37,152 bases of DNA from a virus (IMGVR_UViG_3300043788_000063); one strand, 5' to 3'. Positions 8,847-22,533 are shown, counted from the stretch's first letter. A program made the numbers and translations. Notes: generated by a model not told the origin, from the sequence alone.

Positions 8847-10054
8847 TGTCACATTTTTCAGTTCTAGTAATTGGCGGCAACGTGGAGGAACAGCTTCAAC
8901 CCTACCACGAATTTGAATGCACTGGCACTGACGACCAGTACGTCCAAGAGATTGATCAAACCGAGGAAGCACGCAAGACGTGGGAGGAAGACACGACCAC
9001 CTGCGTTCGCAACCCAAACGGCGAACTTGAGGATAGGTGGACGAAGGACGGCGATTGCCGACCCGAGTTCTACCGTGAACCTACCCCGGAAGAGGAAGCC
9101 AAGCACGGCAAGATGTGGGGCAGTGGGGGCGGGAACGGCATAAGCTGGACCTCCAAGGACTGGAACGACGGTCGCGGCTACCGCGCCAAGATTTACGAAC
9201 TTCCCGAGGGTTGGACTGAGGTGGAAGTTCCCACAAGCACCCGCCAGACCTTCGCCGAGTTCTGTGAAGACTACTACGGGCACACAATCGTGCCGTTCGG
9301 CGAACAGCCGAACTTCGTCAAGGGGGACGAGTCCTCCAACCACAAGTACGGATACACCATCGTTGACGAGCAGGGCAACGTCGTCAAGACCATTGACCGC
9401 ACCAACCCGAATGCAAAGTGGGACTGGTACTCGGTCGGCGGGCGCTGGAACGGGCACTTCAAGCTCAAGCCCCTCGGCGTGGGCGTGGTCGGCGAACCCG
9501 GTCTCCAGAGTATGAACGAAGACTACGAGCATCCAGGCGAAGACCGTGCCGACATCCTCATGAAGGGTGACATTGACGTTGAGGGCATGCGCAACGAGGC
9601 GGGCGAGAAGGCTGCCGACCGCTGGGACAGGTTCCATGCCATCATCGCCGGGCTGCCGGAGCCTATCACGTGGGAACAGATGCAAGAAAAGCACCAGACG
9701 GGCGAGACTGACGAGCACGGCAAGCCGAAGACTGACTGGGAAGCCGCCCGCACGGAGTTCCACGCTCAGCCCGCCGTTCAAGCGCTGCGCAACAGCAAAG
9801 ACCGGGACGCAATCTGGTGGGAAGTGGACGACTACATGGTGCCCCGTGAACAGTTCGTCAAAGAGGCACGTGACTACGCCATCGGCACTTTCGCCGTGGT
9901 CAAGGACGGTGTGTGGTACGAGCGTGGTAAGATGGGCTGGTGGGCGGCGGTGTCCAACGAGAAGGATAAGGATGAATGGACTCGCCAGTTCACGGAACTT
10001 TTTGACAGCCTGCCGGACAACACCCTATTGACTGTGGTAGACTGCCACATCTGA
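8846..10054 (+). CDS. Hypothetical protein (402 aa) with a WDWYSVGGRW motif
   Basis: Long ORF with overlapping start (TAATG). No family assigned with confidence. Confidence 0.6.
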   Translation: MSHFSVLVIGGNVEEQLQPYHEFECTGTDDQYVQEIDQTEEARKTWEEDTTTCVRNPNGELEDRWTKDGDCRPEFYREPTPEEEAKHGKMWGSGGGNGISWTSKDWNDGRGYRAKIYELPEGWTEVEVPTSTRQTFAEFCEDYYGHTIVPFGEQPNFVKGDESSNHKYGYTIVDEQGNVVKTIDRTNPNAKWDWYSVGGRWNGHFKLKPLGVGVVGEPGLQSMNEDYEHPGEDRADILMKGDIDVEGMRNEAGEKAADRWDRFHAIIAGLPEPITWEQMQEKHQTGETDEHGKPKTDWEAARTEFHAQPAVQALRNSKDRDAIWWEVDDYMVPREQFVKEARDYAIGTFAVVKDGVWYERGKMGWWAAVSNEKDKDEWTRQFTELFDSLPDNTLLTVVDCHI

Positions 10055-11914: not shown

Positions 11915-11989
11915 AGGGGAGTCATTCAACGGCTAGGATGGCGGTCTCCAAAACCGCTCATGGGGGTTCGAATCCCTCCTCCCCTGCCA
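11915..11989 (+). tRNA. tRNA-Trp (anticodon CCA), CCA end encoded
   Basis: Hand-folded cloverleaf: acceptor AGGGGAG/CTCCCCT, anticodon stem GCGGT/ACCGC, loop CTCCAAA, T-arm GGGGG-TTCGAAT-CCCTC. Confidence 0.8.
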
Positions 11990-12014
11990 AATTTTGCAGT
12001 AACGAAGGGAATTT

Positions 12015-12645
12015 ATGGAACTGAAACTAGAAGCTTCTCAAGCGCGAGGGACCCGCATCCTGCGGGGACAGACGGCTGCCCGGAGACGTCTTCATCTCGT
12101 CTAACCTCGCATTGAGAGCGACGGAAGCCGGGTACGAGGAAATCGTCCTTCCGTCGCTTGAGCCAGCCGCGATCTACGCTGAGAAGGCTGGTAATGAAGT
12201 TCTGGGGCAGATGTACACGTTCCCAGACAAGAAAGGCAGGCAGCTTTGCCTGCGACCGGAAGGGACGGCGACTTGCCAGATACTCGCCGACACGGTGCTG
12301 AAGTCGGAGCGGGACGTGAAGCTCTGGTATCTGGCGACCTGCTGGCGCTACGAGCGGCCGCAGGCGGGGCGTTACCGGGAATTCTTGCAGTTCGGCGTTG
12401 AGGTCTTGAACCCACGCCAAGATATGCGGGACGAACTGGTGGAGTTGGCGACGAGCATGGTCGGGATGTTCACCGACAAGTTTGAAGTCAGCAAAGCAGT
12501 GAAGCGTGGGCTGGCGTACTACGTTGAGGACGGCTTTGAGATAAGTTGCCCGGCGTTGGGAGCACAGAAGCAAGTCTGCGGCGGCGGGTCGTACAAGCAG
12601 GGATGCGGTTTCGCATTCGGCGTAGATCGGCTGATGTTGGTTTAA
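12015..12645 (+). CDS. Minimal histidyl-tRNA synthetase-like catalytic core (~210 aa). It is interrupted by a +1 frame change near 12100-12112 and lacks the insertion and anticodon-binding domains.
   Basis: Frame 0 (ATG 12015) encodes MELKLEASQARGTRILRGQTAARRRLHLV*, which resembles the HisRS N-terminus.
Frame 1 (from 12031, TTG 12112) encodes ...AGYEEIVLP...QMYTFPDKKGRQLCLRPEGTA...LWYLATCWRYERPQAGRYREFLQFGVEVLN (class II motif 2 / HisRS motif).
This runs directly into KRGLAYYVEDGFEISCPALGAQKQVCGGGSYKQGCGFAFGVDRLML (HisRS GGGRYD plus motif 3 GFAxGxxRL). Confidence 0.7.
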
Positions 12646-12649
12646 CGAT

Positions 12650-12727
12650 GGTGGCGGTCGTCTAGAGGCTTAGGACCCCTGACTGTGACTCAGGTGATCG
12701 TGGGTTCGAATCCCATCCGCCACCCCA
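12650..12727 (+). tRNA. tRNA-His (anticodon GTG) with genomically encoded G-1 and C73
   Basis: G(-1)+GTGGCGG acceptor pairs with CCGCCAC, followed by C and CCA. Anticodon arm CCTGA-CTGTGAC-TCAGG. T-arm GTGGG-TTCGAAT-CCCAT. Starts 5 nt after the HisRS-like stop. Confidence 0.85.
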
Positions 12728-12733
12728 AATTTC

Positions 12734-12811
12734 GTCCGTGTAGCTCAGTTGGATTAGAGCGCTTCCCTCCGAAGGAAGAGGTCGTGAGTTCGAGTCTCAC
12801 CATGGACACCA
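12734..12811 (+). tRNA. tRNA-Arg (anticodon CCG)
   Basis: Acceptor GTCCGTG/CATGGAC. Anticodon stem CTTCC/GGAAG with loop CTCCGAA. CCA encoded. Confidence 0.8.
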
Positions 12812-12816
12812 GAGTT

Positions 12817-12996
12817 ATGAGAGAGACGACTGAGTATCCGCCGTTCCAGATCAGGTGCTCCAAATGCAACAAGGAGCCGGGTCAGTGCTGTGGTAGGTGG
12901 GACGGGGCACCGTATGCGTGCATGGATCGTGTGAAAGCTGCGGAAGAGATATTCGGGAAGTTCAGGTACAAGGACGGCAAGTACGTGCGTGTGTAG
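12817..12996 (+). CDS. Possible small zinc-ribbon protein (59 aa) between tRNAs
   Basis: ATG 12817; CSKCNKEPGQCCGRWDGAPYAC. The 3' end overlaps the next tRNA by ~10 nt, so the call is weak. Confidence 0.25.
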   Translation: MRETTEYPPFQIRCSKCNKEPGQCCGRWDGAPYACMDRVKAAEEIFGKFRYKDGKYVRV

Positions 12997-13063
12997 CTCA
13001 GTTGGATAGAGCGCTACTCTGCGAAGGTAGAGGTCGGCAGTTCGATTCTGCCCATGCGCACCA
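12987..13063 (+). tRNA. tRNA-Arg (anticodon GCG)
   Basis: Acceptor GCGTGTG/CATGCGC (two G-U pairs). Anticodon stem CTACT/GGTAG with loop CTGCGAA. T-arm GGCAG-TTCGATT-CTGCC. CCA encoded. Confidence 0.7.
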
Positions 13064-13073
13064 AGTTTACAGA

Positions 13074-13151
13074 GCCGGGTTAGTCATTGGACATGACAGC
13101 ACGTCTTCGAAACGTGCATATTTACGGGTTCGAATCCCGTACCCGGCTCCA
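13074..13151 (+). tRNA. tRNA-Arg (anticodon TCG)
   Basis: Acceptor GCCGGGT/ACCCGGC. Anticodon stem (G)CACGT/ACGTG(C) with loop CTTCGAA. T-arm ACGGG-TTCGAAT-CCCGT. CCA encoded. Confidence 0.7.
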
Positions 13152-13236
13152 GAGTTTGGTCTGGCGCACGCTGGTGCCAGCGAAAGTGAAGGTTGCCGTA
13201 ATCAGTCGCCCTTCAACCGAGTGGTTTTGCAAGTAC

Positions 13237-13314
13237 GCGCCCGTAGCTCAGCGGAATAAGAGCACTTCGCTACGAACGAAGGGGTCGGGAGTTCGAATCT
13301 CTCCGGGCGCACCA
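13237..13314 (+). tRNA. tRNA-Arg (anticodon ACG)
   Basis: Acceptor GCGCCCG/CGGGCGC. Anticodon stem CTTCG/CGAAG with loop CTACGAA. CCA encoded. Confidence 0.8.
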
Positions 13315-13326
13315 GTTTTGTGCTGA

Positions 13327-13402
13327 TGAGGCGTGGTCCAATCGGTAGGACGCCGCACTGTTAATGCGGATGGTGAAGGTTCGAGTCCTTCCGCCTCAGC
13401 CA
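13327..13402 (+). tRNA. tRNA-Asn (anticodon GTT), copy 1
   Basis: Acceptor TGAGGCG/CGCCTCA, G73. Anticodon stem CCGCA/TGCGG with loop CTGTTAA. CCA encoded. Confidence 0.7.
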
Positions 13403-13419
13403 ATTTTGCAGTAACATGT

Positions 13420-13494
13420 TGGGGTGTGGCTCAATGGTACAGCAGGTGACTGTTACTCACCCATTTGCAGGTTCGAGTCCTGCTGCCCCAGCCA
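13420..13494 (+). tRNA. tRNA-Asn (anticodon GTT), divergent copy 2
   Basis: Acceptor TGGGGTG/TGCCCCA (two G-U pairs), G73. Perfect anticodon stem GGTGA/TCACC with loop CTGTTAC. T-arm GCAGG-TTCGAGT-CCTGC. Confidence 0.6.
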
Positions 13495-13510
13495 AGTTTA
13501 GGAGGATGCG

Positions 13511-13774
13511 TTGCGAGTAGATGCTCCAGAGATCGTCAGGGTTGAAGATCGGGCGGTGCTTGAGCCGCTCGCCCAGCGCGGTCTGGCGGCGCATGAGCGG
13601 CTGCGGACAGCACGGGCAGCCCTAGCCGAGGCTCGGCGGATTGAGTACGCCGCAGAGATAGAACTTGCTCAGGCTGAGCGTGAGTACGCCGCCGTGAACC
13701 GGGAGATTGTCGGTGCCGGATACCACGACACAGGACACGTCGTGGGCTATTTGAAGAGTTCAGTTCCTCGGTAG
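13511..13774 (+). CDS. Small helical (Ala/Glu/Arg-rich) protein, 87 aa, between tRNAs
   Basis: GGAGG (13501-13505) is 5 nt upstream of TTG 13511. The 3' end overlaps the next tRNA by a few nt. Confidence 0.4.
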   Translation: MRVDAPEIVRVEDRAVLEPLAQRGLAAHERLRTARAALAEARRIEYAAEIELAQAEREYAAVNREIVGAGYHDTGHVVGYLKSSVPR

Positions 13775-13839
13775 CTCAATGGTGGAGCAGACGGCTGTTA
13801 ACCGTAAGGTTGTGTGTTCGACTCACACCCGAGGAGCCA
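13765..13839 (+). tRNA. tRNA-Asn (anticodon GTT), canonical copy 3
   Basis: Acceptor TCCTCGG/CCGAGGA, G73, CCA. Closely resembles E. coli tRNA-Asn. Loop CTGTTAA. Confidence 0.8.
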
Positions 13840-13924
13840 AGTTTCAGAGTTTGAGCGACCAGATCGCAGACGGCAACTTCGTTCAATGGAGGGCGATGAT
13901 CCAAAGCGGCGGACGCTCAAAGAC

Positions 13925-14003
13925 GGGTACGTAGTGTTTAACGGATTAGCACAGCAGCCTCTTAAGCTGTCGAGTGTGGGTTCAAATCCCACCGTACCCA
14001 CCA
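13925..14003 (+). tRNA. tRNA-Lys (anticodon CTT), copy 1 (long D-loop)
   Basis: Acceptor GGGTACG/CGTACCC. Anticodon stem GCAGC/GCTGT with loop CTCTTAA. T-arm GTGGG-TTCAAAT-CCCAC. CCA encoded. Confidence 0.6.
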
Positions 14004-14027
14004 AATTTGTGGTATTGTAGGGTTTTC

Positions 14028-14103
14028 GGGCTGCTAGCTCAACTGGTAGAGCATTCGACTCTTAATCGACAGGTTCCGAGTTCAAGCCTCGGGCAGCCCA
14101 CCA
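14028..14103 (+). tRNA. tRNA-Lys (anticodon CTT), copy 2
   Basis: Acceptor GGGCTGC/GCAGCCC. Anticodon loop CTCTTAA. T-arm CCGAG-TTCAAGC-CTCGG. CCA encoded. Confidence 0.75.
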
Positions 14104-14117
14104 AGTTTTTAGAGTAT

Positions 14118-14141
14118 TAGGGTTTAGCTTCCTAAGCCCTA
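14118..14141 (+). promoter_or_regulatory. 10-bp hairpin between tRNA-Lys and the HNH gene RBS
   Basis: TAGGGTTTAG-CTTC-CTAAGCCCTA (one G-U pair), directly upstream of GGAGG (14146-14150). Confidence 0.35.
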
Positions 14142-14157
14142 GATAGGAGGACAGGAC

Positions 14158-14703
14158 ATGCCTGACGTACTGGTACTGGATTCAAACTACCGTCCCATCG
14201 GCTTCAAGTCGTGGCAGGACGCTGTGAAGAATGTGTTTGAGGATCGCGCTATCGTCATCAAGGAAGACGAGAGCGGCGCGAAGCTTCACTCCCCGTCCTT
14301 TGAGATGGGCATGCCCCGTGTCATCCGTGTGCGTAACGCATGGGTGAAGCGCCGGAAGACTTCTGTCCCGTTCAGTCGCCGGAACATCTACATCCGCGAC
14401 AGCGGTGAGTGCCAGTACTGCGGCAAGCACCTCAAGACGGACGAGTACACGCTTGACCACGTGGTTCCGCGCTCGCAGGGCGGAATCTCAAGCTGGGCTA
14501 ACCTTGTCCTGTGCTGCGTGCGCTGCAACAAGCACAAGGCCGGACAGACACCGCAGCAGGCTCACATGCCGCTTCTGAGCAAGCCTGTTACACCGAAGGT
14601 TGATGATCCGAAGTACAACTTCAAACTCCACATTAGGAAGCTTCGGCCGGAGTGGAAAGAGTGGGCCGACTGGTTGTACTGGAACATTGAAATAGACGAG
14701 TAG
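14158..14703 (+). CDS. HNH endonuclease (181 aa) embedded in the tRNA array
   Basis: CQYCGKHLKTDEYTLDHVVPRSQGGISSWANLVLCCVRCNKHK is a canonical HNH motif. RBS GGAGG upstream. Confidence 0.75.
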   Translation: MPDVLVLDSNYRPIGFKSWQDAVKNVFEDRAIVIKEDESGAKLHSPSFEMGMPRVIRVRNAWVKRRKTSVPFSRRNIYIRDSGECQYCGKHLKTDEYTLDHVVPRSQGGISSWANLVLCCVRCNKHKAGQTPQQAHMPLLSKPVTPKVDDPKYNFKLHIRKLRPEWKEWADWLYWNIEIDE

Positions 14704-14711
14704 GTTAAAGA

Positions 14712-14733
14712 CCCGGAGGAGTAATCCTCCGGG
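14712..14733 (+). terminator. Terminator-like hairpin (9-bp stem, GTAA loop, weak U-tract)
   Basis: CCCGGAGGA-GTAA-TCCTCCGGG followed by CAAAATTTCT. Confidence 0.4.
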
Positions 14734-14743
14734 CAAAATTTCT

Positions 14744-14820
14744 GGCCCCGTAGTTCAGTGGAATAGAACGCAGGTTTCCTAAACCTGATGTCGCAGGTTC
14801 GAGTCCTGCCGGGGTCACCA
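14744..14820 (+). tRNA. tRNA-Arg (anticodon CCT)
   Basis: Acceptor GGCCCCG/CGGGGTC. Anticodon stem CAGGT/ACCTG with loop TTCCTAA. CCA encoded. Confidence 0.75.
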
Positions 14821-14827
14821 AGTTTGA

Positions 14828-14874
14828 GTTGCACGAAAATGTGCAACAAGCAGGAATTGCACGAAAGTGTGCAA
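14828..14874 (+). repeat. Two tandem near-identical palindromes, TTGCAC-N6-GTGCAA
   Basis: GTTGCACGAAAATGTGCAAC (14828-14847) and TTGCACGAAAGTGTGCAA (14857-14874), with centres ~30 bp apart. Confidence 0.6.
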
Positions 14875-14878
14875 CTGT

Positions 14879-14952
14879 TGGGAGATCGTCCAATGGTAGG
14901 ACACGCGCCTCTGGAGCGTGGAATCTAGGTTCGAGTCCTAGTCTCCCAGCCA
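14879..14952 (+). tRNA. tRNA-Gln (anticodon CTG)
   Basis: U1-A72 acceptor TGGGAGA/TCTCCCA, G73. Anticodon stem CGCGC/GCGTG with loop CTCTGGA. CCA encoded. Confidence 0.7.
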
Positions 14953-14957
14953 AATTT

Positions 14958-15113
14958 ATGACGATGCTTGAAGCATATTTTGATGAATTGCTCGCCCGGA
15001 TGCAGACACCAGAGTGGCGTGCGGCTGCCCAGCGGGCATTTGACGCAACGCCCGAAGAAATTGGCAAAGCGGCAGTGGAACATGCTGGACAAAACCGTGA
15101 AAGTGCGGTATAA
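14958..15113 (+). CDS. Possible small protein (51 aa)
   Basis: ATG 14958 immediately after the tRNA-Gln 3' end. Overlaps the internal promoter. Confidence 0.3.
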   Translation: MTMLEAYFDELLARMQTPEWRAAAQRAFDATPEEIGKAAVEHAGQNRESAV

Positions 15114-15114
15114 T
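15086..15114 (+). promoter_or_regulatory. Sigma70-like promoter TGGACA-N17-TATAAT inside the tRNA array
   Basis: Exact hexamers and spacing. ATG 15124 lies 10 nt downstream of the -10. Confidence 0.5.
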
Positions 15115-15123
15115 GGTCACAAG

Positions 15124-15297
15124 ATGAACTCCACGCTGAAGACGATCCTGAAGGTCACGGCGGCGGCGATTGTGCCAGGTGCGGCGATCTTTCTAGTCGG
15201 AGCATGGCTCCTGAAGGATCGTGAGAAGGAAGAATTCAGGAAGTACATTCGCAGTACCTACGGTGACGGAAGCAATTATGTGGACAATTACCGCTGA
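15124..15297 (+). CDS. Possible small membrane peptide (57 aa)
   Basis: Hydrophobic stretch KVTAAAIVPGAAIFLVGAWLL. A further overlapping 37-aa hydrophobic ORF lies at 15278..15391. Confidence 0.3.
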   Translation: MNSTLKTILKVTAAAIVPGAAIFLVGAWLLKDREKEEFRKYIRSTYGDGSNYVDNYR

Positions 15298-15405
15298 CGA
15301 TCTCATCAACTACGGCGCTCTAGCGACGATGCTGCTTGGCGTCTATGGGCTTTACCTCGCTTACACCTACCCCGCACGAAGAAAACGCTAACCACAATTT
15401 AATCT

Positions 15406-15488
15406 GGGCGTGTAATCGGGGGAGTCTTCTAAACTCTTAGCCGTAACTGGAATTGAAAATGCGAGTTCGACTCTCGCCACGCCCACCA
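15406..15488 (+). tRNA. Atypical 83-nt tRNA-like gene, possibly tRNA-Arg (anticodon TCT), with a degenerate D-arm and a 23-nt extra region
   Basis: Canonical acceptor GGGCGTG/CACGCCC, A73 and CCA. T-arm GCGAG-TTCGACT-CTCGC. The only 5-bp/7-nt stem-loop is GGAGT-CTTCTAA-ACTCT. Only 8 nt separate the acceptor from the anticodon stem. Confidence 0.35.
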
Positions 15489-15497
15489 ACCTTTTTG

Positions 15498-15573
15498 GGA
15501 GCGTAGCTCAATCCGGCAGAGCACTCGCCTTTTAAGCGAAACGTTGTGGGTTCAACTCCCACCGCTCCCACCA
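15498..15573 (+). tRNA. tRNA-Lys (anticodon TTT), copy 1
   Basis: Acceptor GGGAGCG/CGCTCCC. Anticodon loop CTTTTAA. T-arm GTGGG-TTCAACT-CCCAC. CCA encoded. Confidence 0.8.
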
Positions 15574-15578
15574 AATTT

Positions 15579-15655
15579 TGGGTCGTTACGTCAACTGGTA
15601 GACTACTCGCCTTTTAAGCGATGGAATCTCGGTTCAAATCCGAGGCGACCCACCA
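15579..15655 (+). tRNA. tRNA-Lys (anticodon TTT), copy 2
   Basis: Acceptor GGGTCGT/GCGACCC. Anticodon loop CTTTTAA. T-arm CTCGG-TTCAAAT-CCGAG. CCA encoded. Confidence 0.75.
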
Positions 15656-15664
15656 AACTCTTCC

Positions 15665-15931
15665 CTAAACCTCAATGCAGATACCCCAAATGCCGGAGTG
15701 TTCTTCAAAGCAATCCTTACAGTCACAGCACCTAAATGCCGTCATTTCGTCGGCGTTGATGTACTTGAATGGGCCTTTGCTTATGTGCCACCCACGCTTC
15801 CGCCCGCAGACCTCGCACGTGTAGAGTCCACGCTTAAGCCCCCGCCTCAGCTTCTCTTCTTGGTCAAGTTCCCTGACCTCACGGGCGATTATGCGGTTCA
15901 ACGCTTGCAGTTTTTTGGGTAGGTTTTTCAT
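15665..15931 (-). CDS. Small HNH-like zinc-finger protein (88 aa), distal gene of the minus-strand cassette
   Basis: CEVCGRKRGWHISKGPFKYINADEMTAFRCCDCKDCFEEH fits a CxxC..H..N..CxxC..H pattern. The ATGA overlap (15928-15931) couples it to the upstream gene. Confidence 0.45.
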   Translation of the reverse strand: MKNLPKKLQALNRIIAREVRELDQEEKLRRGLKRGLYTCEVCGRKRGWHISKGPFKYINADEMTAFRCCDCKDCFEEHSGIWGICIEV

Positions 15932-16203
15932 TCCAGACCTCCAATGTTCAGGTCCTTCAGGAACTTCTTATCCGCCTCAGTCACCTTCGGAGGATCATTG
16001 AACACCCAGCGGTTCGGGGACACTTCCACTTTCATGTCCGAAGTCGCGACCAGTGTTTTGTCGCAGGCTTCAATCAGAAGAAACATGGTCACGGCATCAA
16101 GCATCTTTGACAAATGCTTAGCGCTTACAGGTATGAAGGTTTCGCTATGGAGCTTGCCCTCGGTCTCATCGCCTTCTTGTGCAACTTTAATGGTGATTTT
16201 CAT
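15928..16203 (-). CDS. Hypothetical protein (91 aa), first gene of the minus-strand cassette
   Basis: GGAGG is 7 nt upstream of the ATG on the minus strand. Confidence 0.5.
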   Translation of the reverse strand: MKITIKVAQEGDETEGKLHSETFIPVSAKHLSKMLDAVTMFLLIEACDKTLVATSDMKVEVSPNRWVFNDPPKVTEADKKFLKDLNIGGLE

Positions 16204-17443: not shown

Positions 17444-17474
17444 ATATCTTCCCGATGTAGTGCATACTTGGGTC

Positions 17475-18761
17475 ATGAAGAAAGAGATGACCCTCCTCGG
17501 TCTGATCGCCGCCACGTACTTCATGGTGTCGGGCGGGCCTTACGGACTTGAAGACCTCATAGCTGAAACTGGCTACGGGCTGGGCATCCTCATCCTGATC
17601 CTCGTGCCCGTTCTCTGGGCGATGCCGACAGCGCTGATGGTCGGTGAGCTTGCTTCTGCAATCCCCGACAACGGCGGTTTTTACGTCTGGGTCAAGCGTG
17701 GGCTAGGAAGGTTCTGGGGATTTCAAGAGGCTTGGCAAACGCTCGCCTCGTCCGTGTTTGACATGGGCTTGTACCCCCTCCTTTTTGTCAGCTACCTCGG
17801 CACCCTAGCCCCCAATCTAATCGCGGGATGGCACGGTCCAGCCATCGGTACCGCCCTCGTCGCAGCCTGCCTCGGATGGAATATGAGAGGCGCAAAGGCT
17901 GTGGGTGATGGTTCGGTAGGCTTCGGGGCGCTGATGGTCTCTCCGTTCGCCGTACTCGCAGCAATGGGCATCTGGCACGCCCATCGTGATGCCGTGACGA
18001 TAGCGGCACAGCATCACCCGCACCCGGCGCTGGTCGCCGGGATTTTGGTCGCCATGTGGAACTACATGGGGTGGGATAATGCCAGCACCATTGCTACCGA
18101 AGTTGAGAACCCCCGCCGCACATACCCCCTCGCCATGTTCTGGACGATGGTCGCCATCGTCGCTACCTACATCATCCCTGTCGTGGCGGCATGGCGCTTT
18201 GGCATCCCGCTGTCCGCATGGTCAACCGGAAGCTGGGCGACAATCGGTGGAGCCATCGCAGGCCCGCTGATTCGTGACGCGATCGTCGTCGGCGGCATGA
18301 TCTCGGCCGCGGGACAACTCAACTCCCTGATGATGAGCTACTCCCGCCTGCCGGGCGCACTGGCTGAGGACGGCTTCCTGCCGAAAGTTTTCACGAAGGT
18401 CAACAAGGCTGCCGTGCCGATGATCGCGCTCTTCGCCTTGAGCACCGTTTGGCTGGCTGCCATTGGGCTGAACTTTGACAGGCTAGTCATGCTGGACATC
18501 CTGCTTGCCGGGAGCAGCATCGTGTTGGAGTTCGTCGCACTGGCTGTCCTCCGCTGGAAAGAACCTGATCTTCTGCGTCCGTTTGCTGTGCCTGGTGGCA
18601 AAGTCGGGGTGATCATCTGCGGCATTCTGCCCACGGCGTTGCTGATCGGCGCTGCTATTTTCTGCGATCATGCTGGGGTTGCAATCGGCGTCGGCACGAT
18701 CCTCGCCGGGTTCGTGACTTACTGGGGCGTAAGGACATACGGCCGCATCCACTGTAAGTAG
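17475..18761 (+). CDS. APC-superfamily amino-acid/polyamine permease-like transporter (~429 aa, multi-TM)
   Basis: The N-terminus LIAATYFMVSGGPYGLEDLIAETGYG and the 12-TM hydrophobic profile are typical of APC permeases. The start could alternatively be GTG 17460. Confidence 0.6.
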   Translation: MKKEMTLLGLIAATYFMVSGGPYGLEDLIAETGYGLGILILILVPVLWAMPTALMVGELASAIPDNGGFYVWVKRGLGRFWGFQEAWQTLASSVFDMGLYPLLFVSYLGTLAPNLIAGWHGPAIGTALVAACLGWNMRGAKAVGDGSVGFGALMVSPFAVLAAMGIWHAHRDAVTIAAQHHPHPALVAGILVAMWNYMGWDNASTIATEVENPRRTYPLAMFWTMVAIVATYIIPVVAAWRFGIPLSAWSTGSWATIGGAIAGPLIRDAIVVGGMISAAGQLNSLMMSYSRLPGALAEDGFLPKVFTKVNKAAVPMIALFALSTVWLAAIGLNFDRLVMLDILLAGSSIVLEFVALAVLRWKEPDLLRPFAVPGGKVGVIICGILPTALLIGAAIFCDHAGVAIGVGTILAGFVTYWGVRTYGRIHCK

Positions 18762-18805
18762 TCATTCTCCCCAAGTCGGCTGTATACTATAGGTCTGGAG
18801 GACGT

Positions 18806-20335
18806 GTGACTGCGATCAACCAAAAAGTGAATCATTGGCAACACGGCTCTGGAATTGTGGTTGAGATTTTAGAAGAGTGCGTGAGGGTGGCGTTTGAGTC
18901 AGGGCAAATCAGAAATTTAGCGGAGGACAATCTGACTGACGAAAACGACGATCCCTTGGAGCCACAGCTACGTGTTAACGTAACCACCGTTCCGAAGCCG
19001 ATTCTACCAGCCGTCCCCGAGGGATTTGTTCCCATAGGTCTGCCCGCCCCCGCATCCACCGTCATTCCCGTGGTTCTCAACGGCGACCGCATATCTCTCC
19101 TCGGCAATTGTTTGGAGGTTATGAAAGGTATCCCATCCAAGTCCATCGCATTCATGTTCGTTGGACTCCCCTACGGAGCTACTGAAATGGAGTGGGACAA
19201 GCCGTTCAAGCAAAGAAAATATCTGCGTGCATGGCTCGTGGAGTTTTGGGCGGAAGTCAGACGCATAATGATGGACGGAGGCGTCGTCTGCTGCCAAGCG
19301 GCTGAAACGCTGATCTACGAGAAGAATCGTCCTGTCGGAACTTTCGCCACGGAGTTGAAGAACTCCAATTCGGACAGCTACCTGTACTCCTACATTTGGG
19401 TCAAACAGCAGCCCTCTGACTGGCATGCGGTCAAAAAAGGTGTGCTTCTCCGCCCCCGGCGCAAACACGAAGTGGTCGTCACTTTCTGCATAGGCAGCCG
19501 CACCCCGAGAGTTTTCAATGAGTGGAAGTCAAAGACCAACCCCGTCTCTGGGTATGACAGCGAGGGTCGTGCAACGAATGGAGTCATGTGGGGGCCAAAC
19601 ACAAACAGCAACCACAAAGACAACCCGCTCGGTCTCCGCTACCTTGAAGACGTAATTTACATGTCAACCGACCGATCAACTCGGGATGAAGAAGCCCGAA
19701 GTGAGGAGGGTCTTGAGGAGAAAGCTGACACGCCAAATCCGATAGCGCTGCCTTGGCTGTTTGCAAAAATATACTCCAACGAAAACGAGTGGTGCCTAGA
19801 CCCGACGATGGGAACTGGAACCAGTGTCCTCGCCTTTATCCACGCCGGGCGCAAGGGCATGGGAATAGAGCTTGAAAAGGACACCTTTGAAGGCGCTGAT
19901 CGGGCTATTGCTTCTGCCACGTTTGGTGACGACCGCATAGAACAAGCAGAAGCCTTGCGGACGAATAACTTCTCCGAACCCGCAGCATGGGTGGAGTGCG
20001 CCGTGGAACTGGACCGCCTTCAGACGGAGTTCGACAACCGCATCTTGGTCTTCGTGAAGAGACATTCCGATAAGGGAGAGGGAATAACCAGCACGTACTT
20101 GGCTAAGGAAACAGTCTCCGATGGTCATCAAGTTCGGGGTTGCCTCGCACGCCTAAAAAACGCCGGACTGGTCGTAAGTGTCAAGCAAGAGAAGGGCGCA
20201 AATCTTTGGTATGAGAAGGGCGCAGCGACGACTCTGGCTGGACTACTGTCCGCCCTCTTCAACATTGAGGACGAGGTTGAAACCGAGGCCGTTGTTGAAG
20301 AAACCAAAGCGGATGCGGCCGCTGCCGGAGACTAA
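18806..20335 (+). CDS. DNA methyltransferase (N6-adenine or N4-cytosine; motif IV precedes motif I) with a ~90-aa N-terminal extension
   Basis: LLGNCLEVMKGIPSKSIAFMFVGLPYG matches the motif IV (DPPY-like) region. CLDPTMGTGTSVLAFIHAGRKGMGIELEKDTF matches motif I FxGxG. The start codon is uncertain (GTG 18806). Confidence 0.7.
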   Translation: MTAINQKVNHWQHGSGIVVEILEECVRVAFESGQIRNLAEDNLTDENDDPLEPQLRVNVTTVPKPILPAVPEGFVPIGLPAPASTVIPVVLNGDRISLLGNCLEVMKGIPSKSIAFMFVGLPYGATEMEWDKPFKQRKYLRAWLVEFWAEVRRIMMDGGVVCCQAAETLIYEKNRPVGTFATELKNSNSDSYLYSYIWVKQQPSDWHAVKKGVLLRPRRKHEVVVTFCIGSRTPRVFNEWKSKTNPVSGYDSEGRATNGVMWGPNTNSNHKDNPLGLRYLEDVIYMSTDRSTRDEEARSEEGLEEKADTPNPIALPWLFAKIYSNENEWCLDPTMGTGTSVLAFIHAGRKGMGIELEKDTFEGADRAIASATFGDDRIEQAEALRTNNFSEPAAWVECAVELDRLQTEFDNRILVFVKRHSDKGEGITSTYLAKETVSDGHQVRGCLARLKNAGLVVSVKQEKGANLWYEKGAATTLAGLLSALFNIEDEVETEAVVEETKADAAAAGD

Positions 20336-20354
20336 TTTCCTTGCCCTGTGATTG

Positions 20355-20385
20355 TGGTAGAATCTAGCAGAGAGACACTTCTCTC
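20355..20385 (+). promoter_or_regulatory. Extended -10 promoter (TGgTAGAAT) followed by a 6-bp hairpin in the 5' UTR
   Basis: TGGTAGAAT at 20355-20363. Hairpin GAGAGA-CACT-TCTCTC at 20370-20385. RBS AGGAG follows. Confidence 0.35.
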
Positions 20386-20397
20386 AGGAGAGTATCA

Positions 20398-20661
20398 ATG
20401 TCCAATACCAACGCACTCAAGAACATCATCATCACCACGCTGTTGCTCAACGGCGGCACCACAACGTCAACCACCGTGTACACCGCGGTCGGTTCCGTAT
20501 TCCCGTCCTTGAAGAAGAACTTTGACGACTTGACTTACAACGTCCGGTGGGCACGCATGTCGCTGGCCGAGGCTGGTCTGGTTGAGCAGAGCAAGGTCCG
20601 GGGTGAGTGGTCGCTGACGTCAGCAGGACGCAAGGCTGCACGCGCCCTCTTCACAGCGTAA
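20398..20661 (+). CDS. Stand-alone Mrr-N-like winged-helix protein (87 aa)
   Basis: YNVRWARMSLAEAGLVEQSKVRGEWSLTSAGRKA resembles the Mrr restriction-enzyme N-terminal wHTH domain (IRWAR..L..AGL....RG.W.LT..G). Confidence 0.5.
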   Translation: MSNTNALKNIIITTLLLNGGTTTSTTVYTAVGSVFPSLKKNFDDLTYNVRWARMSLAEAGLVEQSKVRGEWSLTSAGRKAARALFTA

Positions 20662-21576
20662 GCGATCCACGGCGGCGATTCGTTCACCAATCCAACGCAT
20701 GACGGGGACTGCCATTGAGTCCCCGAGTACCTTGTACCTCGCAGAGTCCGTTGCGGTCTTGGTAGGGATAGCGGTGTATCCGGGCGTGAATCCCATCAGC
20801 TTCTCGCACTCTTCTGGTGTGAACCTGCGGGGTTCCTGACCAGGAACGAGCACAGCCTGAGTCTGCGACAGAATCAGAGGGTTGGAGATTCCTTCTCGTT
20901 CTGCGAAGTTTCGTCCTTCTTGGTGGTTGAAGGAGATGATTGACTCGCTACTTTCTCCAGCGCCGTCCGCAGACGTGGGCTGAGCTTCACCTTGTAGCGC
21001 TTGTCCTGTGCCCGGTTCAAGATTCCCTGACAGGCAGCCGGACTCAAAAAGCACTGCGGCGGCAGGTCGCCAGTCTCCAAGATGTCCGACAATGTAGACA
21101 CGACGTCTAATCTGCGGGACTCCGAAATAGCGAGCGTCCAGCACTCTGTAAGAGAACCCATACCCGAGTTGCACCAGCGCCCCGAGGATGGTTCCAAACG
21201 CCCGTCCGGCGTCAACACGCAAGACGTTGGGGACATTTTCCCAAACGATCCATCGGGGTTTTTTGATGTCAGCGAGTCGTAGAAACTCAAGGGCGAGGAT
21301 GCCCCGAGGGTCAGCGAGTCCTTCTCTGACTCCTTGGAGGGAGAAGGATTGGCAAGGGGTGCCTCCGACGAGTAGGTCAATTCGTTCTTGCTTGAAGATT
21401 TCGTTGTCATAAAGTTTGGTCATGTCTCCAAGGTTCGGAACGGTGTAGCGATGAGCCAGCACGTCGTTTGGGAATGCACCGATCTCGGAAAACCAAGCTG
21501 CCTTCCAGCCGAGCGGTTCCCACGCCACGCTGGCTGCTTCTATTCCCGAGCACACACTGCCGAACCGGATACTCAT
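20620..21576 (-). CDS. DNA (cytosine-5)-methyltransferase, orphan (318 aa)
   Basis: Motif I FGSVCSGIEAAS, motif IV GGTPCQSFS, motif VI ENV (IVWENVPNVL). No adjacent restriction endonuclease gene. Confidence 0.85.
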   Translation of the reverse strand: MSIRFGSVCSGIEAASVAWEPLGWKAAWFSEIGAFPNDVLAHRYTVPNLGDMTKLYDNEIFKQERIDLLVGGTPCQSFSLQGVREGLADPRGILALEFLRLADIKKPRWIVWENVPNVLRVDAGRAFGTILGALVQLGYGFSYRVLDARYFGVPQIRRRVYIVGHLGDWRPAAAVLFESGCLSGNLEPGTGQALQGEAQPTSADGAGESSESIISFNHQEGRNFAEREGISNPLILSQTQAVLVPGQEPRRFTPEECEKLMGFTPGYTAIPTKTATDSARYKVLGDSMAVPVMRWIGERIAAVDRLRCEEGACSLASC

Positions 21577-21628: not shown

Positions 21629-21949
21629 ATGCCTTGCCCAACGTGCGGTGGACCGATGAAGGCCGCTAACGACGAAGCGGATTTTGAACAGGTTGCGGAA
21701 GGTCTGCGCAAGCGCGGATTTACTGCGGACGTTCACGCCTCGGGCGGCGGCATTGACGTGATCCGGGTCGTCCATGGCAGCCACGTCTTCTACTTCGGCA
21801 CCGCAGCCGAGGAGTGGGGCGCTTCCGTGTACGAGAGCGACGACGAAAACCACATCGGCGAAGCTTGGACGGTCGTCTCCTCCAACGAAAAGAATCCCGA
21901 ATTCGTCGCCGACGCAATCGCCCAGACCGTGACGGAATACGAAAGATAA
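21629..21949 (+). CDS. Small protein with an N-terminal zinc ribbon (CPTCGGPM), 106 aa
   Basis: RBS TAGGAG upstream. Divergent from the C5-MTase. Confidence 0.5.
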   Translation: MPCPTCGGPMKAANDEADFEQVAEGLRKRGFTADVHASGGGIDVIRVVHGSHVFYFGTAAEEWGASVYESDDENHIGEAWTVVSSNEKNPEFVADAIAQTVTEYER

Positions 21950-22011: not shown

Positions 22012-22533
22012 ATGAAGAAAACCCTATTGTTCTTGGCATTTTCAATCCTCCTGTTCGCAATTCCGACGTTTGCCCAGAAGCATGGTGGCGGTAGCCCCAG
22101 CCATAACAACGGTGGTTCCCACAACAGTGGCGGTGAGCACGGTGGGGGTCAGCGTGGCGGGGAACAGCATGGCAGCCCGCAAGTCCACGGCGGTCCGGTG
22201 CGTGGCGGTGGAGAACAGCACGGCGGCAGCCCGGTAGTACGTGGCGGGGAACAGCATGGTCAAGTTCGTGACCGCTTTGATCACGACCGCTACGGGCACA
22301 ACTTTCACCGTGAAGACTTCGGACGTGACCACTGGGCACGCTTCGGCGACCACGACGGTCGGTGGTACGGCGGACGTAGAGAGTATTTCTTCGGTGGTTT
22401 CTGGTTTGGCAGCTACGGCTGGCCCGCTTGGTTTTACAATTGCCGAACCTATTTCGATCTTGGTCCGGACGGTTTGTGGTACGCGTATTGCTATGATAAC
22501 CCAAGTCTTTACTTCCGAGTCTACATAGACTAA
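22012..22533 (+). CDS. Secreted Gly/His-rich repeat protein with an aromatic-rich C-terminus (173 aa)
   Basis: Signal peptide MKKTLLFLAFSILLFAIPTFAQ. RGGEQHG-type repeats. Strong RBS GAGGAG. Followed by a strong terminator. Confidence 0.6.
   Translation: MKKTLLFLAFSILLFAIPTFAQKHGGGSPSHNNGGSHNSGGEHGGGQRGGEQHGSPQVHGGPVRGGGEQHGGSPVVRGGEQHGQVRDRFDHDRYGHNFHREDFGRDHWARFGDHDGRWYGGRREYFFGGFWFGSYGWPAWFYNCRTYFDLGPDGLWYAYCYDNPSLYFRVYID

Follow-up and report, generated by a model that had tools for sequence, protein, structure and literature searches.

Why would a phage carry the DNA-binding domain of a modification-dependent restriction enzyme, without the nuclease, between two DNA methyltransferase genes? 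The question is raised by a viral sequence of 37,152 nucleotides (nt; IMGVR_UViG_3300043788_000063), here called the window over its full length, in which a gene for an 87-amino-acid (aa) winged-helix protein (20398–20661, + strand, ATG start) follows an N6_N4-type DNA methyltransferase gene and converges on a C5 cytosine DNA methyltransferase gene, the 3′ ends of the two convergent genes overlapping by 42 nt. An earlier note on this sequence had rightly described this arrangement, had taken the protein for a Mrr_N domain without a nuclease, and had suggested that it might act as a dominant-negative decoy or as a shield for methylated phage DNA.

By methylating its DNA against classical restriction, a phage exposes itself to modification-dependent (type IV) enzymes. 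The Mrr enzyme of E. coli K-12 (EcoKMrr) joins an N-terminal winged-helix binding domain to a Mrr_cat nuclease and is triggered in vivo by both N6-methyladenine (6mA) and 5-methylcytosine (5mC) in various contexts (PMC3874153, PMC12707154). The two enzyme families flanking the winged-helix gene write marks of these kinds. The gene is a fixed and, to judge by its predicted promoter, independently transcribed part of a methylation module in a clade of uncultivated huge phages, and the readings of its function are weighed below against that background.

A free-standing Mrr_N domain

The 87-aa protein (isoelectric point [pI] 10.1) matched the Pfam family Mrr_N (PF14338) with 31.9 bits (E = 1.4e-7), above the gathering cut-off of 29.5 bits (HMMER), with the alignment limited to aa 46–82, equivalent to profile positions 51–86 of 87 and covering helix 3 and the wing. 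The N-terminal half aligned with real Mrr_N domains in a MAFFT alignment only, in which the loop between helices 2 and 3 was shorter in the phage protein. The PADLOC type IV model mREase_IV matched the same stretch as Mrr_N (E = 7.5e-4), and there were no matches among the PHROGs or NCBIfam models. Mrr_N was the sole domain recognized, a Pfam scan detecting no Mrr_cat, other nuclease or further domain, as the earlier note had held. Profile-profile comparison (hhalign) of the phage family with EcoKMrr aa 51–88 gave a probability of 83.5% (E = 8.4e-6; 50% identity over 36 columns). When the phage proteins were aligned jointly with EcoKMrr and with tandem Mrr-enzyme domains, L15, W51, G60, G69, W71, and T74 were invariant and G20, L56, and L73 nearly so. 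The Pfam score, the profile relatives, and the hhalign match with its signature residues identify the protein, as far as sequence comparison goes, as a genuine, free-standing Mrr_N domain without a nuclease, and the profile searches placed it with Mrr_N rather than in an unrelated winged-helix family.

The likeness to EcoKMrr and other Mrr enzymes thus extends to the family, the winged-helix fold, and the signature W51, L56, G60, G69, W71, L73, and T74, while the phage protein differs in lacking the Mrr_cat domain (of the PD-(D/E)xK type), in being phage-encoded, and in adjoining methyltransferase genes. Type IV enzymes normally avoid methyltransferase neighbours. The predicted fold was a winged helix (predicted local distance difference test score, 89.5), with the best structural matches to SSV1 F-93, AspA, TubR, and PadR-like proteins (Foldseek E above 1e-3; 9–27% identity). 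These are small dimeric winged-helix proteins of viruses and plasmids, of similar size with a C-terminal helix, and the modelled similarity is at the level of fold alone and carries no functional information.

Word-indexed searches and one metagenome scan recovered 16 stand-alone homologues (84–110 aa, identity down to 42%), all from metagenomic contigs, the largest of 448 kb. Every one of the 16 matched Mrr_N and no other Pfam family (E ≤ 0.01), and the phage family shared a particular N-terminal pattern (LL..GG, VY.AV, FP.L). The pI ranged from 9.9 to 11.6 across the family, which argues for a DNA-binding protein and against a DNA mimic, and it is very likely that the 87-aa protein binds DNA. 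Among eight orthologues, pairwise ratios of nonsynonymous to synonymous substitution (dN/dS) were 0.07–0.39 with dS up to 1.7; the gene is therefore real and under purifying selection.

These data bear directly on the reading of the gene as a decaying, functionless relic of a type IV restriction gene after loss of the nuclease half. Many of the Mrr_N-only proteins in databases probably are truncated Mrr genes or fragments at contig ends, which would suit such an origin. The dN/dS values, the coherence and uniform length of the 16-member family down to 42% identity, and the conserved promoter and Shine-Dalgarno sequence described below nonetheless effectively refute it; 3′ of the gene, where the convergent methyltransferase gene overlaps it, there is also no nuclease-like sequence.

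Searched with a profile, a set of 1.84 billion representative proteins yielded only 11 matches, comprising three stand-alone clusters, one fragment, proteins with one to five Mrr_N domains with or without Mrr_cat (including enzymes with two to three Mrr_N domains plus Mrr_cat), and one spurious protein. The last of these, P0008 (2517 aa), had entered with 12 ‘repeats’ of the motif and was rejected as a cadherin-repeat protein. P0010 (717 aa) consisted of five tandem Mrr_N domains with no recognizable nuclease or other domain, another nuclease-less use of Mrr_N. Elsewhere the Mrr_N domain is joined to at least two types of effector, Mrr_cat and McrB-like AAA_5, as would be expected of a portable DNA-targeting module. 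Mrr_N-only proteins are already present in databases as unnamed winged-helix proteins, some of them on complete bacterial chromosomes. Such cellular proteins (e.g., P0038 from Enterobacter, P0086 from Pedobacter, and P0123 from Citrobacter) resemble the phage protein in being free-standing Mrr_N domains of about 90–200 aa without a nuclease, but they are only distantly related to it, many may be fragments, and the name given by NCBI is ‘winged helix-turn-helix domain-containing protein’.

A conserved place beside DNA methylation genes

The order seen in the window, with the N6_N4 methyltransferase gene upstream on the same strand, the winged-helix gene, the convergent C5 methyltransferase gene, and then a divergent gene for a 106-aa protein, recurred in four related loci (L001, L013, L018, and L019). 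The first three genes were arranged in the same way in L002 and L003, with an unrelated gene and a gene for Vsr, respectively, in place of the 106-aa gene, and three short contigs (L004, L005, and L006) retained the convergent winged-helix and C5 genes. In L014 and L015 the N6_N4 gene again preceded the winged-helix gene on the same strand, and a 185-aa open reading frame (ORF) on that strand separated the winged-helix gene from the convergent C5 gene. In L010–L012 the N6_N4 gene was divergent from the winged-helix gene while the C5 gene was again convergent, with Vsr two genes away and more C5 genes nearby. L017 carried the N6_N4 gene followed by the winged-helix gene.

The remaining loci had other combinations of the same functions. 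A homologue of the 106-aa protein preceded the winged-helix gene and Vsr followed it in L007, and an 817-aa protein with a C-terminal class-I S-adenosylmethionine (SAM)-dependent methyltransferase domain preceded it in L016. L013 had two winged-helix paralogues, the first after a 956-aa homologue of the L016 protein and the second after the N6_N4 gene. In L008 a pair of N6_N4 and C5 methyltransferase genes was followed by two small ORFs, the winged-helix gene, and a second N6_N4 methyltransferase gene (6280–7035 of this 200-kb contig) that lay directly downstream and was broken by frameshifts; the start of that second gene was intact on a short contig (L009), 6 nt after the winged-helix gene.

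Wherever enough flanking sequence was available, a gene for a DNA methyltransferase or for Vsr lay no more than two genes from the winged-helix gene. This neighbourhood, kept even at 42–45% identity, is the principal new finding and makes a functional tie to DNA methylation likely. No recognizable restriction nuclease occurred among the neighbours scanned, and ‘orphan’, as applied to the methyltransferases in the earlier note, means no more than that.

The pattern invites the explanation that the phage methyltransferases use the protein as an accessory subunit, a partner binding DNA or reading marks that would recruit or stimulate a neighbouring enzyme or make it processive, e.g., towards hemimethylated DNA after replication. 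The winged-helix gene is immediately 3′ of a same-strand methyltransferase gene in most loci (and 6 nt upstream of one in L009), the two paralogues of L013 are matched one to each methyltransferase-like gene, and comparative genomics has linked the reader domains HARE-HTH and ASCH to N6A methyltransferases at the level of operons (PMC4738411). The enzymes themselves speak against it. The N6_N4 enzymes carry their own C-terminal winged helix plus a zinc-finger insert, the C5 enzyme is of a complete stand-alone type, and no fusion of a methyltransferase with Mrr_N was present in the 120 best-ranked of 1153 Mrr_N proteins. In the window clade, moreover, the winged-helix gene is preceded by a promoter of its own and lacks translational coupling, and its product was unchanged after the upstream enzyme had been replaced. 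On balance an accessory role is unlikely.

The possibility that the winged helix found at the C-terminus of both N6_N4 alleles is itself a Mrr_N domain, which would have made a ‘Rosetta-stone’ fusion, was rejected, since BLASTP returned nothing and hhalign probabilities were 0.3–1.6%.

Replacement of the upstream methyltransferase

The N6_N4-type methyltransferase of the window (18806–20335, + strand; 509 aa; Pfam N6_N4_Mtase E = 3e-18, with a generic winged helix at the C-terminus) was only 24–31% identical to the enzyme at the same position in L001, L002, L003, L013, L018, and L019, while those six were 70–90% identical to each other. DNA homology between the window and these relatives ended at 18,740, the end of the preceding permease gene, and resumed at about 20,285–20,314, within the last 20–50 nt of the methyltransferase ORF, and the window enzyme and that of L001 have the tail ETVVEETKADAAAAGD in common. 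The body of the gene (18741–20314), judging by this pattern of homology, is a replaced allele that arose by xenologous replacement. The slot seems to be a hot spot at which cassettes are exchanged, since the same position held 7–8 kb of other genes in L001 and L013, including an IS110-type transposase in L013.

Motif IV was compared in the window, L001, L002, L013, L014, L019, L010, L008, and L009. All of the N6_N4-type enzymes adjoining the winged-helix gene had a non-canonical motif in place of (D/N/S)PPY, with GLPY in three diverged alleles, among them that of the window (about 19160–19171), GPPY in L010, TLPY in L008, and DLPY in L009.

The C5 methyltransferase (20620–21576, − strand; 318 aa; Pfam DNA_methylase E = 5e-51; TIGR00675 dcm) has visible PCQ and ENV motifs and was 65–93% identical in L001, L002, L003, L010, L013, L018, and L019. 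The antisense overlap of 42 nt between its 3′ end and that of the winged-helix gene (20620–20661, from the ORF coordinates) had counterparts of 48–51 nt in L001, L002, L003, and L013 and of 4 nt in L006 and L010. The 106-aa protein (21629–21949, + strand), which has an N-terminal CxxC and is encoded divergently from the C5 gene, travels with the module, being 73–97% identical in L001, L013, L018, and L019, with weaker homologues (42–45%) near the winged-helix gene in L007, L008, and L010. It had no match in Pfam, PHROG, NCBIfam, or PADLOC. Its conserved block reads VHASGGG[IV]DV...YFGTA...WGASVY, and in L007, L008, and L010 the homologous segments form part of longer proteins of 165, 264, and 561 aa, respectively. 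The identity of the winged-helix protein tracked that of the C5 enzyme and of the 106-aa protein.

Expression signals and a possible regulatory role

An extended −10 element, TGTGGTAGAAT (TG-n-TAGAAT, 20353–20363, + strand), without a −35 element, precedes the winged-helix gene and would function as its promoter, in agreement with the earlier note, which had given the gene a promoter of its own. The element was kept as TGTGGTAG[G/A][A/C]T in seven related loci while the flanking spacer varied; position 8 of its 11 was not conserved and position 9 also differed in L013. A generic promoter scan found nothing at this site because of the missing −35 element, and the window held only one other near-match to the extended −10, at 10033 before another gene. 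Complete promoters of the sigma-70 type preceded the more distant homologues, that of L017 reading TTGACA-N17-TAGAAT. The Shine-Dalgarno sequence AGGAGAG (20386–20392, + strand) places GGAG (20387–20390) 7 nt before the ATG, and this GGAG core was invariant in the related loci while the base just before it varied. The methyltransferase genes have weaker start signals than the winged-helix gene, which these elements suggest is expressed independently and probably strongly.

Between the −10 element and the ribosome-binding site is a 6-4-6 inverted repeat, GAGAGAcactTCTCTC (20370–20385, + strand), a probable stem-loop of the 5′ untranslated region (UTR) that abuts the Shine-Dalgarno sequence and lies at about +5 to +20 of the predicted transcript. 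The stem is a modest one; its arms were invariant in the seven loci, where the first loop base alone varied, and L019 had AGGAGAtattTCTCCT at the same position, equivalent to two compensatory pair changes. The 5′-UTR hairpin of the earlier note is upheld in its conserved arms and these compensatory changes, but not as a feature special to this gene or as one evident from folding energy, the 85-nt leader stretch (20336–20420) folding no better than shuffled sequence (z = 0.01).

A second alternative draws on the palindrome and sees in the protein a regulator, transcriptional or antisense, for the methylation module, comparable to the controller (C) proteins of restriction-modification systems, with GAGAGAnnnnTCTCTC between the −10 and the Shine-Dalgarno sequence as a possible operator. 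Such a regulator would set the timing or level of its own synthesis and, via convergent transcription, that of the C5 methyltransferase. No terminator-like site was found on the + strand between the winged-helix and C5 genes, so that transcription from the winged-helix promoter would continue into the C5 gene in antisense. A small winged helix with a C-terminal helix resembles in fold the dimeric PadR, MarR, and F-93-type regulators, the 6-4-6 palindrome in the gene’s own predicted transcript is perfect and conserved, and in L019 symmetric changes in both half-sites go along with two differences in the recognition helix (N48A and A52T).

Other observations point to a general property of the transcripts instead. 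There was no second exact copy of the palindrome in the window, none near the methyltransferase promoters, and none shared with the spacer between the C5 methyltransferase and 106-aa genes. Perfect hairpins also precede the genes at 224, 4019, 7558, 8846, 10062, 16398, and 23594. Together with the leader at 20398 these are 5–8 bp long, end 7–15 nt before the start codon, and often overlap a −10 of the TGnTAnnnT type; four have arms of at least 6 bp, compared to about 0.8 expected by chance in a rough hand estimate. The distant homologues have short GC hairpins of differing sequence and loop length, each abutting the Shine-Dalgarno sequence. Because similar hairpins precede at least seven other, unrelated genes of the window, this one is probably no private operator and probably reflects a generic 5′-UTR design of the phage’s transcripts, for mRNA stability or ribosome access; with this and the single copy of the palindrome, the idea of an operator or regulon is downgraded.

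The comparison with C proteins holds for a small DNA-binding protein within a methylation gene cluster and a palindrome before its own gene, although here the palindrome has the look of a generic mRNA hairpin. C proteins, however, have an Xre-type helix-turn-helix and are co-transcribed with, and regulate, a nuclease gene, whereas here the protein is a winged helix without an HTH_3 or related match (the Xre-type fold), no nuclease gene is recognizable among the neighbours, the downstream gene being a convergent methyltransferase, and Mrr_N is no known family of transcription factors. A regulatory role is rather doubtful.

A possible shield for methylated phage DNA

The favoured explanation is that the winged-helix protein is a ‘reader’ encoded next to ‘writers’. 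It would be made early from its own host-type promoter and would bind phage DNA carrying the marks of the neighbouring methyltransferases. Occupying the marked sites would put it in competition with those modification-dependent nucleases of the host whose reader domain is of the same kind, and this competition would offset the vulnerability created by self-methylation. Whether the protein prefers methylated DNA is predicted at about even odds, and the full chain, including protection against type IV restriction, is given a probability of roughly 0.3. The more specific proposal of a writer-reader pair, in which a nuclease-less Mrr_N reader on the marks of the phage’s own methyltransferases blocks host nucleases through ‘reader mimicry’ acting on DNA, is put forward still more tentatively.

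The L013 locus, with one reader paralogue for each writer gene, is arranged as the writer-reader idea has it, and a shield is compatible with the strongly basic character of the protein and its strong, independent expression signals. The placing of reader and writer genes side by side also has precedents in prokaryotic conflict systems, in the DpnI and HhiV4I winged-helix readers and in HARE-HTH and ASCH domains (PMC11037411, PMC4738411). Methyl reading by a winged helix has been proven for domains of the DpnI type (PMC11037411), but all of these readers belong to sequence families other than Mrr_N, DpnI and HhiV4I showing no relationship to the phage protein in the searches made, and methyl binding has been demonstrated for DpnI and not for Mrr_N.

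The dominant-negative version of the earlier proposal, in which co-assembly would poison the host enzyme, is less likely because the protein is no close copy of any enzyme domain. Its identity to the N-domains of real Mrr enzymes is only about 20–34%, and the phage family is an old Mrr_N lineage of its own and not a recent copy of a host enzyme.

This distance from the enzymes is also one of several points that weigh against the shield. In the literature the role of Mrr_N is ‘presumed DNA binding’, with methyl sensing presumed and not demonstrated (PMC3874153). Searches of PDB sequences with the 87-aa protein and with the Mrr_N profile gave chance-level matches only, and no solved Mrr_N structure was found. 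We know of no experiment or structure showing that any Mrr_N domain recognizes DNA or reads methyl groups, and most small winged-helix proteins are transcription factors. A role as a regulator or methyltransferase accessory would fit the basic character and expression signals equally well. The winged-helix protein was 95% identical between the window and L018 despite the upstream swap to a 28%-identical allele and is therefore not tuned to the target site of the N6_N4 enzyme. Very large amounts of protein would be needed to occupy every methylated site in a genome of more than 200 kb. Lastly, no relatives of the family were found in IMG/VR, in 50,697 deposited phages (INPHARED, tblastn), or in 185,579 GTDB species genomes (one genome per species), an odd absence for a generally useful anti-restriction device.

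A further explanation keeps the reader and gives it another purpose, as a mark-dependent sensor of self and non-self in phage DNA transactions, steering transcription, replication, or packaging to methylated phage DNA or sparing that DNA from phage-encoded nucleases, or else as one part of a split modification-dependent nuclease with its catalytic partner encoded elsewhere. It shares with the shield the evidence for a reader, Mrr_N is joined to different effectors in cellular proteins, and with 37 kb visible of a genome that is probably larger than 200 kb, partners could lie elsewhere. No Mrr_cat or other partner nuclease was adjacent to the winged-helix gene in any locus, though, and the explanation makes no specific prediction that is met by the present data; it appears decidedly improbable.

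As to known phage counter-measures, very few answers to type IV restriction are known to us, the examples being T4 IPI* and Arn, both of which act on the enzyme. Arn acts against McrBC and is an acidic DNA mimic. In the papers cited here IPI*, against GmrSD, was the sole inhibitor of a type IV enzyme found, and the shield would resemble it in its proposed role only, that of a modifying phage neutralizing a modification-dependent nuclease (PMC3874153, PMC12707154). The phage protein is unlike IPI*, which is injected with the DNA, and unlike Arn in being a basic, predicted DNA binder where both of those act on the enzyme, and no sequence relationship to either was found (no PHROG match; nothing in a tblastn search of 50,697 phage records).

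Genome context

The window is a fragment of a huge phage genome, given its homologues of RIIA (E = 1.5e-105) and RIIB (E = 1.8e-67), a Ku-like protein, 15 tRNA genes, and syntenic relatives on contigs of 73, 200, and 448 kb, and that genome is probably larger than 200 kb. The window also encodes phrog_10079 and phrog_19005 proteins and had no close relative among the 50,697 deposited phages. The tRNA genes (11915–15655) comprise Trp, His, five Arg, three Asn, four Lys, and Gln. An HNH endonuclease gene (14158–14703) lies inside the cluster, and a 177-aa fragment of a histidyl-tRNA synthetase (12112–12645) stands just before tRNA-His.

Several other genes were observed in the window. An 820-aa protein (4019–6481, + strand) matched the major-vault-protein shoulder (E = 3e-25) and the vault repeat (E = 5e-10), which is unusual for a phage. 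The permease gene upstream of the N6_N4 methyltransferase (17460–18761, + strand) encodes a full-length amino-acid permease of the APC family (E = 2.5e-40) and occupies the same place in L001 and L013. An M24 peptidase gene is present, and a 173-aa protein (22012–22533, + strand) combines a signal-peptide-like N-terminus, Gly/His-rich repeats (GGEHGG, GGEQHG), and an aromatic-rich C-terminus, with no family match. A match to the SAM-I/IV riboswitch aptamer (RF01725; 16191–16306, − strand) scored 43.4 bits against a gathering threshold of 41.1, with the conserved core present, and ends at the start codon of a 91-aa ORF (15928–16203, − strand); a SAM sensor is noteworthy in a phage that encodes several SAM-dependent methyltransferases.

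Implications for huge phages and the Mrr_N family

The Mrr_N domain itself and Mrr_N-only database proteins were already known, and nothing relevant was found in the literature on Mrr_N or PF14338. What is new is a coherent, phage-borne, methyltransferase-linked family of stand-alone Mrr_N proteins, together with the pairing of its paralogues with different methyltransferase-like genes and its restriction to a clade of huge phages. If the shield is real, it would be a counter-defence of a different type, occupying the marks on the DNA rather than acting on the enzyme, and would give a free-standing Mrr_N protein an assigned function for the first time. The finding is of value chiefly as a specific, readily tested hypothesis of such a counter-defence. 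Even if the shield idea is wrong, the family would give a first functional handle on the Mrr_N domain and would enlarge the methylation modules of huge phages by one component.

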